From: Patescibacteria group bacterium | Lineage (GTDB): Bacteria; Patescibacteriota; Minisyncoccia; UBA6257; 2-01-FULL-56-20 | Assembly: GCA_038063055.1 (NCBI GenBank) | Contig: JBBTVY010000001.1 | Coordinates: 1 to 52,106 of the forward strand | DNA length: 52,106 bases | Direction of reading: 5' to 3' | In this document: one piece after another, positions 11,336-47,874 of the stretch | Numbering within the stretch: the stretch's first letter is position 1 | Layout of the letters: every line of letters starts with the position of its first letter | Program-made: the position numbers and the translations under genes | The notes under the pieces: model-generated | What the model saw: the letters and a program-made list of their open reading frames with translations, nothing else | Told to the model about the DNA's origin: nothing | The model's database searches: none

Positions 11336-12206
11336 CCCTGGCCAAAGTCGGATGTATTGCTTTTCTGATTGTTTCTGGAATGAACGCGTAAAGATACTGC
11401 AGATAATTCAGAGCAAGCGCCGCTAAATAATTGGGATATTTTCCCTTATAGCGCCTCATTATCGTAAGCGACGCCTTGAGATGGGGTCTCGCTTTTTTTA
11501 TCGAAGTATTGTCGTTCGCCAGAAGATAATATGAAAAATATTCCGGGAAATTGTACAGCTTTCCAACAAGCCCCATTTTGAGCCAGAAATCGCGGTCTCC
11601 GGAATATCTTGTCGATTCGTCATACCAGCCGACCTTCTCGCCGGCGCTCCTGCGGAACATAGTAGTGCTGTTGGCGAGCGGATTTCCGAAAAGCATTTTT
11701 TTTCTGATGGCTTCGTCGGTTTCCGGCTTGAGATACCTGTAAACTTCTTTGCCGTTGCCATCAACAACAATCATCCCTCCGCCGCAGCCGGCGTAGTCGG
11801 GATTTTTGTCCAAAAAATTTACTTGCTTCGAAAGTTTGTCTGCGTCGCACCACGGGTCGTCGTCATCGAGCATGGCTACGTATTCCCCTTTCGCCAGTCG
11901 CAAGCCTCGGTTGTAGTTTTTAGAAATTCCCTGATTAACATCACTTCTCGTGTAAACGATTCGCGGCTTGCCCTGCCCGTCCCGAGCCGCGTCGAGGGAA
12001 GCTTTGTCGAAGGGTTCTTTCTTAAGCCACTTTGCGACAACTTCCGGCGTGTTATCCGTCGAGCCGTCATCGGCGATTATAAGTTCCCAGTCCTCTTGCG
12101 GTGAGCCGGGTCGAACCGTGAATGTCTGCTTTAGCACGCTCTCTATGGCGGAATCAATTAATCCCGCGCGGTTGTATGTGGCCATCAATATGGATACTTT
12201 TGGCAT
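11313..12206 (-). CDS. GT2 glycosyltransferase carrying three in-frame 24-nt insertions
   Basis: SILMATYNR, DDGSTD, LDDDD. Removing the inserts restores LKQTFKDWELII and WLKKEPRIVY. Confidence 0.92.
   Translation of the reverse strand: MPKVSILMATYNRAGLIDSAIESVLKQTFTVRPGSPQEDWELIIADDGSTDNTPEVVAKWLKKEPFDKASLDAARDGQGKPRIVYTRSDVNQGISKNYNRGLRLAKGEYVAMLDDDDPWCDADKLSKQVNFLDKNPDYAGCGGGMIVVDGNGKEVYRYLKPETDEAIRKKMLFGNPLANSTTMFRRSAGEKVGWYDESTRYSGDRDFWLKMGLVGKLYNFPEYFSYYLLANDNTSIKKARPHLKASLTIMRRYKGKYPNYLAALALNYLQYLYAFIPETIRKAIHPTLARVKRRLAG
11967..12014. mobile_element. Two nested 24-nt palindromic elements inserted in frame
   Basis: Outer CTTGCCCTG|AGCTTTGTCGAAGGG is split by inner CCCGTCCCGAGCCGCGTCGAGGGA (11976-11999). 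Together they add 16 aa. Confidence 0.8.
12095..12118. mobile_element. 24-nt palindromic element inserted in frame
   Basis: CTTGCGGTGAGCCGGGTCGAACCG, same consensus as the nested pair. Adds 8 aa. Confidence 0.8.
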
Positions 12207-12232
12207 GAATAGAGAATAATGAATTATGAATA
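12205..12232. repeat. Heptamer tandem array (ATGAATA-type, 4 units)
   Basis: atgaata gagaata atgaatt atgaata, abutting the GT2 start codon. Confidence 0.6.
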
Positions 12233-12287
12233 ATGTGACAAGGAAATTTCTTTGAGAAAGGCTACACCGCGCGTGCAGCCGCTTTTT

Positions 12288-16823: not shown

Positions 16824-17906
16824 TTACTTTCTCTTTCCGCCAGTCAGAATTTTTTGGAAAATTTCCGAAAACCTTTTCTCCCAAGTGTGGTCGCGAATAG
16901 TCCTCTTGTGCCCCGCTTTCGCAATGCGCCCTCTCTCTTCATCGTGGTCCAAATAATATTTTATCTTTTCCGCCAATTCTTTTTTGGTGTTGAATACCAC
17001 AATTTCTTTGTCGTATTCATAGTAATTGTACAAATCCTCGGCAGCTTGAGTTATTAAAAATCCGCCACAGGCTGGAATCTCAAAATTACGGCCTTTTATT
17101 TGGGGCTTAGCGACGGGAAAATTAAAATTGATTACGTTCCTTAAAATAATTGATGGCGGAAAAAAATGGAAAGTGTTGTTAATCCCGCGGCGCATAAATA
17201 CTTTGGCTATTGTTTTAACAATGGTTTTAATGTCTTTGGCCGACGTGCTTACTTCGGCAAAATTCAAGTTTACTTTGCTGTTCGCAAAAATTTCCACCAT
17301 TTTTTCCTGACTTGCGCGGCCATTGGGCCAACCCTGACCCCAACAATCGACGGGAATGCCCTCCCGGGAAAGAAAATCAGCCATTTCTCGCCGATTGCCG
17401 TGCGGCCGTCCCACAAAGGTAACTCCGTACTTTTCTCCTGGAACTGGGTGATAAATTGCCGGATTGGCAGCCCAAGCGGATTTAATGACGTTGCGATAAC
17501 CGATTTTTCCATATTTTGGCAAGGCTTCTCGGTCAGTAGTAACCACCCAGTCAAAAAACGGCGCCCAATATCTGGAAAAATTTTCAAAACGCCATTGGTC
17601 ATCGGAAAACCAATTGACAGTAATAGTGTTGGTTTGGGTGGTAATGGCTTTAATGGTTTGCGGAGTAATTTCGTTGGTAAATAAATTGCAGAACACAATA
17701 TCCGGTTTTTCTTCTTTAACCATCATGAACAATTTATTGTTCATTTCTTTTTTGCCGACTTGCATCATCATTTCATCCACCGCAAAGTAAATGGCGTTCG
17801 CGCCGTACATTCTTGAAATGGAATCCCAAAAATTGACATGTTCGTAGGAATAACCTCGCCGGACATCGGCGTAATCATATTTAAATGCCGCGTATAGAAT
17901 TTTCAT
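16824..17906 (-). CDS. CgeB-like glycosyltransferase (Glyco_trans_1_2)
   Basis: WFSDDQWRF, KGRNFEIPACGGFL, HTWEKR. Paralog of 34290. Confidence 0.85.
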   Translation of the reverse strand: MKILYAAFKYDYADVRRGYSYEHVNFWDSISRMYGANAIYFAVDEMMMQVGKKEMNNKLFMMVKEEKPDIVFCNLFTNEITPQTIKAITTQTNTITVNWFSDDQWRFENFSRYWAPFFDWVVTTDREALPKYGKIGYRNVIKSAWAANPAIYHPVPGEKYGVTFVGRPHGNRREMADFLSREGIPVDCWGQGWPNGRASQEKMVEIFANSKVNLNFAEVSTSAKDIKTIVKTIAKVFMRRGINNTFHFFPPSIILRNVINFNFPVAKPQIKGRNFEIPACGGFLITQAAEDLYNYYEYDKEIVVFNTKKELAEKIKYYLDHDEERGRIAKAGHKRTIRDHTWEKRFSEIFQKILTGGKRK

Positions 17907-32919: not shown

Positions 32920-33879
32920 TTATTCCGTATAGAATAGCATCTTGTGTTTCAGTTGCCAAAAGAATTTTACTAAGCCTGAAATCAATTTACCTGGGATAAC
33001 TTTCACGAACAAGATTATGAACGGATAAAATGCAATCCTCCAGCTACCTTTGAGCGCGTCTTTTAAAACAACGATGGCTTCTTTTTTCTCTTCGAGCAAA
33101 AGATGGGCTACGGCAAGTTTGGTTTTCAAAAGTCGAAAAATTTTATCTTCGCCGTATTTTTTCCTTTCGTCCCCGGACATTCTCGAAAAAAGCGCTTCAA
33201 AACTTCTCAGATTCATTTTTTTCATCTTTACCTGATTATGGAAACCAGACAGGCTTTTTTTGCTTATTCGATTGTAATGAAGCGGTTTGTCAACAAATCC
33301 GAATTTAACGCCGCGATAAGCCAGACGCCGCCAAAGGTCCCAGTCTTCCGCGTCACGGAAATCAGGGTTAAATCCGTTTTCGAAAGCAAAAACTTCCCGC
33401 CGTATCATTACCGAGCCTGGATTTATGAACTGGTGCCGCAGAAGGTCGCGGAAAATGTCTCCGTCCGGCATAGGCCGGTCGTATTCGTACATTTTTTCAG
33501 GCGCGTCGTCATAAAAACTCAAAACGCGGCAGTAAGCGACCCCATAATCATGATTGATTTCGAGGAAATTCACTTCCTCTTCTACTTTCTCCAAGGCGTC
33601 GATATCGTCCGTGTCAAGAAACGTTATGTAATCTCCATGCGACAATTCGAATGCTTTGTTTCTGGCTCTTGAAATCCCCCCGTTGGGTTGTTCGAAATAA
33701 ACGACTCTTTTGTCGCTCAAATAAGGCTTTACCGCTTCCGCCGTGCCATCGACGGAGCCGTCGTTAATAATTATTACTTCTATGCTGGGATAGGTTTGGC
33801 CAAGGGCGGAATCCACAGCCACTTTCACGTATTTTTCCGCGTTATATGCCGGGATTATGATTGAAACAAGAGATTTCAT
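32920..33879 (-). CDS. GT2 glycosyltransferase
   Basis: SIIIPAYN, NDGSVD, FLDTDD, AEDWDLW. Confidence 0.9.
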   Translation of the reverse strand: MKSLVSIIIPAYNAEKYVKVAVDSALGQTYPSIEVIIINDGSVDGTAEAVKPYLSDKRVVYFEQPNGGISRARNKAFELSHGDYITFLDTDDIDALEKVEEEVNFLEINHDYGVAYCRVLSFYDDAPEKMYEYDRPMPDGDIFRDLLRHQFINPGSVMIRREVFAFENGFNPDFRDAEDWDLWRRLAYRGVKFGFVDKPLHYNRISKKSLSGFHNQVKMKKMNLRSFEALFSRMSGDERKKYGEDKIFRLLKTKLAVAHLLLEEKKEAIVVLKDALKGSWRIAFYPFIILFVKVIPGKLISGLVKFFWQLKHKMLFYTE

Positions 33880-33882
33880 GTT

Positions 33883-33924
33883 GTGTACAGACTACAGCTT
33901 ACTGACTACAGCTGACAGTCGTAG
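33883..33924. repeat. Heptamer array, left flank of the four-helix-bundle gene
   Basis: gtgtaca gactaca gcttact gactaca gctgaca gtcgtag. Confidence 0.8.
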
Positions 33925-34278
33925 CTAGAGAAGCTTTTTTATTAACGAGTTAATTTTCGATGCCAATATATTAGCCGACTTATAAAGATAATCAAATTCC
34001 TCCTGATTAATAAAGTTTTGGTCAATTGTGATATACAATGCCGTTACGACTTCCTCCAACGAGGTTATACTTATCCGCAGGAATCTAACGAATTCCTTAT
34101 CCGATTTTCTATCAGCACCTTCAGCTATATTCAAAGTCACTGAAACAGCAGCTCGACGAATTTGCGAAGTTAGTCCGAATTGTTCTTCTTTCGGAAACTT
34201 GCTGGACAAAATATAAATCTCACTGGTAAATTTTCTGGCGAGTTTCCATGTTTCTAAATTTTCAAACCTGAAATACAT
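33925..34278 (-). CDS. Four helix bundle protein (23S rRNA IVP / Avd-like family)
   Basis: FENLETW, FPKEEQFGLTSQIRRAAVSVTLNIAEG, SLEEV. Confidence 0.93.
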   Translation of the reverse strand: MYFRFENLETWKLARKFTSEIYILSSKFPKEEQFGLTSQIRRAAVSVTLNIAEGADRKSDKEFVRFLRISITSLEEVVTALYITIDQNFINQEEFDYLYKSANILASKINSLIKKLL

Positions 34279-34313
34279 GTTAGCAGTAGTCAGTAGTCTG
34301 TAAGCCGTAGTCC
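34279..34313. repeat. Heptamer array, right flank of the four-helix-bundle gene (inverted relative to the left)
   Basis: gttagca gtagtca gtagtct gtaagcc gtagtcc. GTAGTC is the reverse complement of GACTAC. It encodes the last residues and stop of the upstream GT. Confidence 0.8.
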
Positions 34314-35453
34314 AATCCTTTCAAATATCTCTCTGAACCTTTTTTCATAAGTGTGGTCTTTTATGGTCCGTTCGTAGCCGGCAAGCGCGATTTTTTTACG
34401 TTCGTCTTCATTGGCTAGATAATATTTCACCATTTCTGGAATTTCCTTTTCATCGCGGTAAACCGCTATTTCTTTCCCGATTTCGTAATAACGTTCCAAT
34501 CCCTTGGCATATCCAGCCAGAAGAAAGCCGCCACAAGCCGGTATCTCGAATACACGACCCTTTATTTGTGAAATTTTCCGGCCGACGAACCACGAACGGA
34601 AATTCCTCGGGAAGCGCCAGAAATCAGGAACTATTTTTTCGACACTCCTCCTGAAAAAAATTTTGCCTAACGATTTGAGCGAATAATCCATATTCGGCTG
34701 GTTGAGTCCAAGATTTATTTTGCTCTGCCCGAAAAGTTTTATCATTTCCTCTTCGGAAATTCTTCCTCCGCCCCCGCCTGCTAGCGCCTTTGGCGCAAGC
34801 CAATGGCGGGCAGGCCAGCCGGCTCCGAACACGGAAACGCTGATTCCTGACTTTCTTAGCGCATCGACGACTCTCTGTCGCGCCTTGTTCCACGAACCGA
34901 CCAAGCTTACATCGGCTGACGGACTACTGACTACTGCTGACTGCTTACTGCTTGCTGTAGTCTGCCCATCTGTAGTCTGTAGTCCGTAAGCCGTCGGCTT
35001 GTATAATGCCGTATTCGCCGCCCAGCAGGATTTTATGACGTTTTTTAGTCCGAGTTTCCGGTACCACTCGAGTGGCTCGTCATAAACCGTTACGACCCAG
35101 TCGAAATACGGCGTCCAATGGTGGGAATAGCTCCAGAATCTCCAGGTATCGTCCGGAAACCAGGCCAGTGTTTTCGTCTGCGTCTCGCGCCTTATTTTCG
35201 AAAGCGTTTCTTTGCTTACTTCATCGGTCAGCATAAACACGAAAAGCAAATCCGGCTGCCATGATTTTACGGCTTCAAAAAGTTCTTCATTGAATTTCTT
35301 TTTGCCAACTTCGAGAATCCTGTCGAATGGAAAATATTTAATTTCAACGCCCGGCAAATCTTTCAAGCTCAAATAAAAATTATTATGCTCGAAACTTAGC
35401 CCGTAGCTTTTCTTGTAAAAAGAATATTGTATTCCGGTATAAAGTATTTTCAT
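34290..35453 (-). CDS. CgeB-like glycosyltransferase with two in-frame repeat insertions
   Basis: WFPDDTWRF, KGRVFEIPACGGFL, HTYEKR. Has 14-aa and about 21-aa extra segments relative to paralog 16824. Confidence 0.85.
   Translation of the reverse strand: MKILYTGIQYSFYKKSYGLSFEHNNFYLSLKDLPGVEIKYFPFDRILEVGKKKFNEELFEAVKSWQPDLLFVFMLTDEVSKETLSKIRRETQTKTLAWFPDDTWRFWSYSHHWTPYFDWVVTVYDEPLEWYRKLGLKNVIKSCWAANTALYKPTAYGLQTTDGQTTASSKQSAVVSSPSADVSLVGSWNKARQRVVDALRKSGISVSVFGAGWPARHWLAPKALAGGGGGRISEEEMIKLFGQSKINLGLNQPNMDYSLKSLGKIFFRRSVEKIVPDFWRFPRNFRSWFVGRKISQIKGRVFEIPACGGFLLAGYAKGLERYYEIGKEIAVYRDEKEIPEMVKYYLANEDERKKIALAGYERTIKDHTYEKRFREIFERIGLRLTDY
34773..34814. mobile_element. 42-bp palindromic in-frame insertion
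   Basis: CCCGCC..GCGCC-TTT-GGCGC..GGCGGG-CAGG, encoding PARHWLAPKALAGG. Confidence 0.7.
34915..34999. repeat. Head-to-head heptamer arrays inside a coding region
   Basis: gctgacg gactact gactact gctgact gcttact gcttgct, then gtagtct gcccatct gtagtct gtagtcc gtaagcc gtcggct. Confidence 0.8.
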
Positions 35454-41283: not shown

Positions 41284-41543
41284 ACCGAGCACATAAATTT
41301 ATTCCAAACTGAATTCCAGTCGTTCCTTAAGGCGACGAACTGCTTGGCCTCTCTGCTTAAGCATTCTTTCGCGATTTCTTGCATCACGTTCATTTTTGTA
41401 TGCTTCATAATAAATTAGATTTGGTTTTTTATCTTTGTGTTCCTTAAAACGCCTTTTGAGATCATTGGTATAGCCGATATAGGTCGTTCCGTTATCTTCG
41501 CGCTTTAGGACATAGACGTAATACATAAATTTATGTGCTCGGT
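41284..41543. mobile_element. GIY-YIG cassette bounded by perfect 19-bp terminal inverted repeats
   Basis: ACCGAGCACATAAATTTAT (41284-41302) and ATAAATTTATGTGCTCGGT (41525-41543). Confidence 0.75.
41299..41526 (-). CDS. Minimal GIY-YIG nuclease family protein (75 aa)
   Basis: YYVYVL..YIGYT.DLKRR..EH, YYEAY, ARNRERMLK. Confidence 0.92.
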   Translation of the reverse strand: MYYVYVLKREDNGTTYIGYTNDLKRRFKEHKDKKPNLIYYEAYKNERDARNRERMLKQRGQAVRRLKERLEFSLE

Positions 41544-42390: not shown

Positions 42391-42464
42391 TGGCTAATGG
42401 CTAATCGCTTATTGCTAATAACTGGCTTAAACAATTTGCCATATGCTATTTGCTATTCGCTTTT
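42391..42464. repeat. Heptamer tandem arrays (TGGCTAA / TGCTATT type)
   Basis: tggctaa tggctaa tcgctta ttgctaa ... tgccata tgctatt tgctatt cgctttt. Confidence 0.7.
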
Positions 42465-42661
42465 TTGAGATAACCGAGCGCTTCCAATTGCGCCCTTACG
42501 CTTTCTGCTCCCGAGAACGAACTCTTGTCTTCGTGGCCTGCCAATATCTCGCGCAGGACGAAAGTGACAAAAGAAGACGTGGATGCGAATCCACTGTCTT
42601 TTATGAGCTTCTGGACTTTTTTGTTAAGCGGGTCTGGTATGGAAACGGTTGTGTATTTCAT
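42446..42661 (-). CDS. Ribbon-helix-helix (CopG-like) protein with an LxxLGY tail
   Basis: YTTVSIP beta strand, helix, GFASTSSFVTFVLRE, then VRAQLEALGYL. Confidence 0.85.
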   Translation of the reverse strand: MKYTTVSIPDPLNKKVQKLIKDSGFASTSSFVTFVLREILAGHEDKSSFSGAESVRAQLEALGYLKKANSK

Positions 42662-47403: not shown

Positions 47404-47874
47404 TTATTTGAACCCCGCTTCTTTCAGGAATCTTTTTACGTACGGGTGCCACGATGGCTCTATTTTTGAGAACCATTTTGCTTCCGAATTTTGGCTGTCC
47501 AAATTAAATTTTTTATTTCCGGAAATGTTCATTTTGAAAACAAATGCTATGTTGTGCGCGGTCGCTCCGGGAAAATAGCCAGGGGAATGAAACAGCTCGT
47601 CAAACACGAGAAATTTTGCCGTTTTTCCCCTAAGGCCGGTTTCCTGCTTAAGAACCCTGAAAGCAGCATCCTTCAGCAATTCGTTTTTTAAAATGCGCCC
47701 CCCTGGAATCCACCATTTGTTTTTTTCGGGCTGGTTGGTCCTTTTGGCCAGCAGAAATTTTTTGCCGTTGGTTATGACAACGTCAACGCAAACAATCGGA
47801 AAAACTCGGCGGATTTCCCGGTAAATTTTATCTGGGATTTTTTTACGTTTACGAATGACTTTGTAAGTTCCCAT
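47404..47874 (-). CDS. Nudix hydrolase, GDP-mannose mannosyl hydrolase-like
   Basis: PIVCVD, WWIPGGRILKNE..AFRVLKQETG, HPYVK. Follows fcl. Confidence 0.82.
   Translation of the reverse strand: MGTYKVIRKRKKIPDKIYREIRRVFPIVCVDVVITNGKKFLLAKRTNQPEKNKWWIPGGRILKNELLKDAAFRVLKQETGLRGKTAKFLVFDELFHSPGYFPGATAHNIAFVFKMNISGNKKFNLDSQNSEAKWFSKIEPSWHPYVKRFLKEAGFK

Follow-up and report, generated by a model that had tools for sequence, protein, structure and literature searches.

Why should a small gene lying between two glycosyltransferase genes be enclosed by inverted arrays of seven-nucleotide repeats, and why should the same arrays recur, without the gene, inside the coding sequence next door? This question is raised by a stretch of 52,106 nucleotides from a Patescibacteria group bacterium (GenBank assembly GCA_038063055.1, contig JBBTVY010000001.1, positions 1 to 52,106), hereafter termed the window, whose genome (G000; 688 kb, 22 contigs, 90% complete) was compared with those of relatives. 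The gene encodes a four-helix-bundle (4HB) protein of the PF05635 family, which is otherwise familiar from the intervening sequences (IVSs) of 23S rRNA. A first-pass annotation, made from the letters alone, had suggested that the gene and its empty counterpart form an autonomous/non-autonomous pair of a mobile or repeat-generating element. The explanation preferred here, to which somewhat better than an even chance is given, is a joint one, in which an IVS-type cassette resides in a protein-coding operon, the gene-less hairpins are its derivatives, and the arrays depend on the 4HB protein.

Every gene between 31 and 38 kb of the window is encoded on the minus strand, and the 4HB gene (33925-34278, minus strand, 117 aa), which runs from ATG to TAG on the gene strand, shares this direction with both of its neighbors. 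The host glycosyltransferase gene upstream (34290-35453, minus, PF13524) is termed GT, and the downstream host gene (32920-33879, minus, PF00535, a family-2 glycosyltransferase) is termed GT2. Read along the gene strand, the downstream cassette arm (33883-33924, minus) consists of CTACGAC, TGTCAGC, TGTAGTC, AGTAAGC and TGTAGTC followed by TGTACACAAC, and spans the whole gap from the 4HB stop to the GT2 start (33879). The upstream arm (34279-34313, minus) is made up of GGACTAC, GGCTTAC, AGACTAC, TGACTAC and TGCTAAC, and holds the GT stop codon TGA (34290-34292) 11 nt from the 4HB ATG. This arm codes for the final GT residues RLTDY and the stop, the gene-strand GT end being ...GGA CTA CGG CTT ACA GAC TAC TGA, then CTACTGCTAAC, then the 4HB ATG. 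The arms are inverted with respect to each other (78% pairing over 32 nt between 33886-33917 and 34278-34309), and Tandem Repeats Finder detected period-7/14 arrays at 33886-33918, 34284-34302, 34922-34957 and 34969-34988. The inverted flanks, their contact with the stop and start of the ORF, and the supply of the GT terminus by one of them had all been read correctly in the first-pass annotation. In the predicted RNA fold, the arms are paired in both the minimum-free-energy and the centroid structures (z -2.6). No promoter-like or terminator-like site for the 4HB gene was found on its strand which, together with the shared direction of the neighbors, indicates that the cassette is probably read from the operon transcript.

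The 4HB protein belongs to PF05635 (E 9e-36, 122.7 bits against a cut-off of 33.8) and TIGR02436 (23S_rRNA_IVP; 118.2 bits against 24), both above the curated cut-offs. PDB entry 2GSC matches the family profile at E 1.6e-33, 2RLD is a further solved homologue, and the solved homologues contain five chains per entry, which is consistent with a protein that is probably pentameric. The PADLOC defence families gave no match to it, and no catalytic domain is recognizable in its sequence; it is the sole ORF of the element, in which no transposase or recombinase could be recognized.

The gene-less counterpart is a hairpin at 34913-34999 (minus), with arms at 34913-34941 and 34967-34993, which lies in frame in GT and is translated within ...YGLQTTDGQTTASSKQSAVVSSPS... 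as had been proposed. Its arms pair over 27 nt at 85% (34913-34939 with 34967-34993) across 27 intervening nt, and the folded RNA (-37.7 kcal/mol, z -6.0) was equaled by none of 200 shuffles. In the hairpin, about 600 nt from the cassette, both cassette arm types follow each other in unchanged order but with no ORF between them, and the hairpin arms are 90-94% like those of the cassette (29 nt at 90%, 23 nt at 91%); the cassette upstream arm at 34279-34307 is 90% complementary to 34913-34941. In G000 the units of the window recur solely at this hairpin, so that a gene-less copy shares its terminal repeats with a gene-bearing copy, as in autonomous/non-autonomous pairs. The GT loop is 21 aa longer than that of the paralogue at 16848-17906 (query residues 155-180 opposite 5 codons), which agrees with the earlier alignment, and in same-genus orthologues it is shorter by 19-20 aa. 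Between the conserved motifs this loop stretch measures 138 nt in G000 against 81 in G002, 96 in G004 and 78 in G001, the GT of the same-genus genomes G002 and G004 being 81-84% identical to that of the window; close orthologous GTs without the neighboring 4HB gene are also without the long loop.

In another relative, G003, the GT loop contains a different in-frame array, four units of CAGACAT/CAGAAAT, and an identical array is found in frame in a LeuRS-like gene of the same genome. Two contigs of G003 (C15:1-260 and C17:1-330, loci L120 and L132) are chimeric, one joining a LeuRS-like N-terminus to a GT C-terminus and the other the reverse, and in both the join crosses an identical 28-nt heptamer array that is in frame in both genes; heptamer arrays can thus mislead assemblers. 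A second in-frame insert in the GT of the window, at about 34762-34822, is PARHWLAPKALAGGG, a GC-rich stretch with a small GCGCC-AAA-GGCGC hairpin. It is absent in G002, G004, G001, G038, G018 and G035, takes a different form in G020, and has no further copy in G000, while short metagenome contigs match it at 85-90%.

A cognate repeat within the adjacent gene about 600 nt away, as is also seen in fmt of G003, recalls the diversity-generating retroelements (DGRs), in which the 4HB protein would act as the accessory protein Avd and the bracketing arrays would serve as templates for the array in the neighboring gene. The window protein resembles Avd (bAvd, PF22296/NF033474) as a small basic four-helix bundle with five chains per entry in its homologues, and is weakly homologous to it. 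The first-pass annotation had named both the 23S rRNA protein and Avd as kin; the former assignment stands, but the latter does not extend to the Avd equivalog, since under its model NF033474, with a cut-off of 80, the protein reaches 19.1 bits. Moreover, no RVT_1 match was obtained in the 90%-complete genome, the tandem units are short and do not constitute a template/variable repeat pair, and a true bAvd-like gene in G115 (PF22296, 71.8 bits) is intact and not bracketed by arrays. A DGR-like arrangement is therefore considered highly improbable, and the assignment of the window protein as a DGR Avd was rejected on the NF033474 score and the lack of an RVT_1 match.

Comparison with relatives, among which G001-G004 include the same-genus genomes used for the GT/GT2 junction, reveals how the site looks when it is not filled. 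The GT2 start directly adjoins or overlaps the GT stop in G004 and G001, where neither array nor 4HB gene is present; in G002, the two genes are separated by a 50-nt spacer that contains a few AAACCC-like units but no 4HB gene. The whole unit 33883-34313, comprising arrays and ORF, is present in G000 and missing, arrays included, from two same-genus genomes, which implies that arrays and gene were gained or lost together. In the reciprocal comparison, G000 was taken as the empty partner for cassettes of its relatives. Two sites that are filled in G003/G004, namely C15 and the junction of def and fmt, are clean in G000; empty sites, for which the first-pass annotation had proposed to look, do therefore occur. 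At a third site, C5:33113-33269, G005 has a cassette and G000 a gene-less hairpin, whose units are those of that cassette and whose 56-nt loop is similar to the 3' spacer of the cassette. Three further sites show gene-less hairpins with other units where relatives carry 4HB, and at the remaining one, filled in a relative, unrelated hairpins are found.

Arrays have come to encode the ends of host genes, and not only at the GT terminus of the window: the fmt start codon in G003 comes from the downstream arm of a cassette. In the Fmt loop, the array of G000 (AAATTCC, four units) and that of G003 (GTATCAA/G) are equal in loop length, demonstrating that arrays can replace sequence besides adding to it. 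At two junctions, the GT end (GGACTA) and the fmt start (ATGAAG), the unit nearest the host resembles the ancestral host bases, as might be expected if units were copied from the target, the geometry of these target-like units differing between the two cases (n=2). Two side observations concern sites of this kind. A gene-less heptamer hairpin of GTAGAAA type occurs in G000 at C13:7116-7286, upstream of the gene for RNase III by about 600 nt, and G005 carries a 4HB cassette at the corresponding site. In addition, a non-heptamer palindromic spacer element (caatcggt...accgattg) occurs between genes at C3:32085-32150 and C3:15800-15870, one of the copies corresponding in position to a 4HB cassette of G005.

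The first-pass annotation had staked its proposal beforehand on the flanking arrays being a general property of the family, and this generality was observed. All four PF05635 genes of G000 are bracketed by inverted heptamer arrays, with units of different types (GGAATTT, AGATTTA, TAGGGTA and GACTAC). PF05635 was found in 29 of 41 sampled relatives of the order, where an own-flank inverted match of at least 16/21 occurs at 24/30 loci as compared with 36/870 permuted pairs. A second set consisted of the best 80 of 595 relatives from a scan with one genome per species, and covers Bacteroidota, Gamma- and Betaproteobacteria, Clostridia, Planctomycetota, Acidobacteriota, Elusimicrobiota, Omnitrophota, Desulfobacterota, Ignavibacteriota and several candidate-phyla-radiation (CPR) groups; its flanks display the same bracket design. 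A strict test with 120-nt flanks and an ungapped score was applied to 26 loci of the order and 77 of the many phyla, most of which are read as bracketed. The median bracket scores were 30 and 26, respectively, against 14 for the null, and 16/26 and 34/77 loci exceeded the 99th percentile of the permuted null, which is itself inflated because many loci share similar units, so that these counts understate the bracketing visible in the flanks. The expected 7-nt periodicity was likewise recovered, with a period-7 array in the flank at 15/26 and 40/77 loci, a period-8 array at 3/26 and 12/77, and a period-5 or period-6 array at none of either set. The cassette stem has a median of 27.5 bp, or about four units, and lies 9 nt from both start and stop. 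Its upstream arm is poor in C (9.6%, as compared with 27.6% G) and its downstream arm poor in G, and the 4HB gene is co-directional with both neighbors at 79/88 loci and antisense to both at 3/88. A 4HB gene of Luteimonas, for instance, is bracketed by GGGGCTG/GGATCTG/GGGACTG-type units.

The arrays of G000 extend well beyond these brackets. At three thresholds, 27, 50 and 68 period-7 arrays were counted, as compared with 0-6 for the other periods from 4 to 12 and none in shuffled sequence, and the window repeats qualify as heptanucleotide tandem repeats, with at least three head-to-tail 7-nt units in excess over other periods. The arrays of G000 are located mostly at gene boundaries in operons, as intergenic hairpins or at gene ends, and some lie in frame in ligase-like, Fmt and SMC-like genes. 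Units of one G000 4HB gene are matched at 13 places, against 0-2 for column-permuted controls; two other genes, including that of the window, have one cognate locus each, and the fourth shows no excess. Across the compared loci, 20/97 cassettes have another cognate array no more than 1.5 kb away, against 10/291 controls in which the arms of another locus were used, and about 12 satellite arrays are situated 400-1400 nt from their cassette, mostly in the next spacer. With regard to transcription, gene-less hairpins have the two polarities in 10 and 5 cases, which is not significant.

Whether the arrays accompany the gene was assessed from 20-100 kb sampled per genome and expressed as arrays per 100 kb. 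Among 20 genomes of the order, the 11 without PF05635 have a mean of 2.5 (7 have none) and the 9 carriers a mean of 10.2 (Spearman 0.73). Among 14 genomes of other families, picked by gene count and contiguity ahead of array counting, those without PF05635 yielded 0, 0, 0, 0, 0, 0 and 1.7 and the carriers 2.5-70 (Mann-Whitney U=0, p 0.0014; Spearman 0.93), related genomes being non-independent, so that p-values overstate the association. Only 1 of 16 carriers had no array in its sample, as compared with 12 of 18 genomes without the gene. In the sampled sets, period-7 arrays are thus frequent solely in PF05635-carrying genomes. The counts from three genomes of a Firmicutes family (3, 3 and 0 arrays for 2, 1 and 0 genes) are anecdotal. 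The densest stretch encountered, G137:C1:100001-160000 (loci L216-L218), holds 42 heptamer arrays in 60 kb of a genome with 7 PF05635 genes; G115, its gene-free family-mate, has 1 array in 60 kb.

The proteins themselves are 19-44% identical to that of the window, with invariant Q, S, N, E and E positions, and are basic (median pI 9.3). Pairs located in unrelated genomic contexts share at least three heptamers in 3-6% of cases below 55% identity, 15% at 55-65% and 31% above 65% (13 pairs). This relation bears upon a reading in which gene and arrays have nothing to do with each other, the arrays being slippage-prone simple repeats or terminator-like hairpins and the 4HB gene a passenger that inserts into pre-existing hairpin loops. 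Slippage of the polymerase has indeed been put forward to explain heptanucleotide repeats (Mrazek 2007, cited by PMC4679880). Gene-less hairpins do occupy sites of relatives' cassettes, and the different GT loop units of G000 and G003, with local CAGAC-like seeds in G002, would fit in-place growth. However, array-free clean empty sites exist at 3 junctions, arrays are nearly missing from gene-free relatives of similar composition, the base composition of the upstream arm gives the arms a fixed polarity, the orientation is almost always sense, and protein similarity predicts unit similarity across unrelated contexts, all of which renders independence of gene and arrays quite unlikely.

According to the preferred joint reading, the PF05635 ORF lies in the loop of a stem of about 30 bp made by the two inverted heptamer arrays. 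The arms would pair in the transcript and be cut by RNase III, as has been shown experimentally for IVS stems, and such cutting could render insertions in operons and rRNA tolerable; RNase III is encoded in G000 (C13:7865-8251). Gene-less hairpins would arise through loss of the ORF together with local and dispersed copying of the arrays. The 4HB protein, in turn, may bind the repeated units and be needed to create, homogenize or spread the arrays, a role that is suggested by the co-occurrence, the cognate copies and an analogy with the RAYT/REPIN system, and that would be fulfilled by a transposase-free route.

The nearest known system is the 23S rRNA IVS with its S23p ORF, as in Leptospira, Coxiella, Xanthomonas and Brucella. 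Both possess a PF05635 protein encoded in the sense direction of the host transcript, with the ORF in an inverted-repeat stem. In the Coxiella IVS, the S23p start is immediately preceded by three GACAGAT heptamers in tandem, whose number differs from strain to strain and the first of which is the site of RNase III cleavage (PMC4990558). The same source records an earlier guess that the IVS is a mobile element whose ORF serves mobility, and three decades without a function for this ORF family (PMC4990558, in the part available). Unlike the 23S IVS, which occupies helix 9, 25 or 45, the window cassette lies between and its derivative inside glycosyltransferase genes, its arms supply host codons, and its gene-less copy is translated; no Rfam family reached the gathering score in the window or at the three other PF05635 loci of G000.

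Bacterial RAYT genes offer the second parallel, being low-copy genes flanked by inverted short repeats that are also dispersed as gene-less hairpins termed REPINs. To our knowledge, REPIN repeats have been found only where a RAYT gene is found. The window gene resembles RAYT in its inverted flanks and dispersed gene-less hairpins, but differs from it in lacking an HUH/Y1 transposase, in encoding a 4HB protein without known catalysis, and in having 7-nt tandem units that are locus-specific. Rickettsia palindromic elements are in-frame palindromic repeats in protein genes that are translated as surface-loop inserts; in contrast with them, the GT hairpin is composed of heptamer arrays and has a gene-bearing version next door.

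Several observations weigh against the joint reading. The cassette contains no transposase, reverse transcriptase (RT) or nuclease, the RVT_1 search of the genome having been negative as stated above, and no target-site duplication was recognized at the three filled/empty junctions (GT/GT2, def/fmt and C15). Arrays far outnumber 4HB genes in G000, as do the families of units, and the Fmt array substitutes for a loop of equal length without adding any. By the strict thresholds, 10/26 and 43/77 loci fall within the null, many of them having short arms or arms further off. The co-occurrence is also imperfect: G039 has 7 arrays and merely a broken PF05635 gene; G021, G024 and G030, assembled in 60-90 contigs, yielded 1-3 arrays from small samples, and no gene was detected in them even by the family profile; and 60 kb of G016, a carrier of one gene, contain no array. 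Mismatches in the arms include no sense-strand wobble excess (89 G:U against 112 A:C), which leaves an RNA-only constraint unsupported and an upkeep of complementarity at the RNA level not obvious. Among Logan contigs from 4 runs (3 samples, 2 studies), those of two samples from one study showed no variant, joint or length change relative to the window, and the contigs of one run break at 34268-34422; no RNA run was listed as containing the stretch. Of the proposed autonomous/non-autonomous pair there accordingly remain the shared arms, the empty sites, the cognate copies and the co-occurrence, but no transposase, duplication or transposition event was identified. Finally, at one Flavobacterium locus the 4HB gene has been inherited vertically with 70-94% protein identity and a dN/dS of 0.06-0.08, which suggests a benefit to the host and is untypical of a purely selfish mobile gene.

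This strong purifying selection makes host regulation the main rival, albeit one that is taken to be unlikely. Here, the 4HB protein would bind nucleic acid in a sequence-specific manner and thereby regulate, for instance, mRNA processing, stability or termination, with the arrays as its operators, the bracket around its own gene effecting autoregulation and the others defining a regulon. Such a role would suit the stable inheritance of the Flavobacterium locus beside the same neighbor gene, the presence of the gene in 41/41 sampled Flavobacterium genomes, the basic character of the proteins, the co-occurrence of arrays and gene, the tendency of related proteins toward related units, and the placement of most arrays at operon gene boundaries. 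It accounts poorly for arrays that lie in frame within housekeeping genes (ligase-like, Fmt, SMC-like and LeuRS-like), or inside 23S rRNA in other bacteria, as reported in the accessible part of PMC4990558. Moreover, gene and arrays are jointly present or absent between same-genus genomes and overwrite host gene ends, the unit families exceed the 4HB genes, and at orthologous loci the units change while the protein keeps its 70-94% identity. In the Flavobacterium locus, the arms have remained complementary despite this change of units.

The joint reading, if taken further, touches on heptanucleotide repeats at large, which have been known since the short tandemly repeated repetitive (STRR) sequences and which are the commonest long simple repeats, patchily distributed across phyla. 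The evidence described above ties this puzzle to that of the functionless IVS ORF family, and the association provides a testable agent for heptamer repeats, for example in Flavobacterium, Xanthomonas, Bacteroides and Nostoc. The arrays resemble the cyanobacterial STRR, the GGGAATC-type repeats of Xanthomonas and Nostoc and the TAACTGA repeats of Beggiatoaceae in having tandem 7-nt units, a mostly intergenic location and a sporadic phylogeny, but the available descriptions of those repeats name no associated gene, whereas the present arrays bracket and co-occur with PF05635. Xanthomonas genomes contain 70-75 convergent (inverted) heptamer pairs, described without a gene in the accessible part of a paper that there discusses structures only (PMC4692102). 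The available text on the Beggiatoaceae heptamer states that no transfer mechanism is evident and does not mention the terms S23, IVS or four-helix (PMC4679880). The association of PF05635 with heptamer arrays was not met with in the literature searched, supplements and most subscription papers being outside its scope.

A bolder proposition, regarded as doubtful, is that PF05635 is the agent behind bacterial heptanucleotide repeats of the STRR and GGGAATC type, acting as a pentameric four-helix-bundle "ruler" that would bind 7-nt units and, with host enzymes and independently of RT, direct their writing, homogenization and copying into DNA, both next to its own gene and at other places. If this were true, a single 4HB activity would yield operon-junction hairpins, rRNA IVSs and in-frame peptide inserts; it would be a cousin of DGR homing that works without RT, and repeat-generating elements would gain a new class. 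In very small genomes, the arrays rewrite gene ends and extend enzymes by translated loops, and hence constitute a source of protein variation and of assembly errors.

Three further features of the window deserve description. Two adjacent heptamer arrays with the units TGGCTAA and ATTTGCT are present at 42391-42465, between two minus-strand genes; they are weakly complementary (15/21), form no inverted pair at seed 8, and one of them encodes the C-terminal codons and stop of the upstream gene. Another heptamer array, with an ATGAATA unit, is found at 12205-12235. Lastly, the copies of a perfect 19-nt inverted repeat at 41284-41543 enclose a 75-aa GIY-YIG ORF (41299-41526, minus; PF01541, E 1e-11), overlapping its stop and its start, and this repeat occurs also as an ORF-less inverted pair at C4:47731-47748 and 47818-47836. 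Here, then, is another type of mini-gene that is bracketed by a hairpin and has an empty copy elsewhere, and at the orthologous site G002 carries a truncated 4HB gene.

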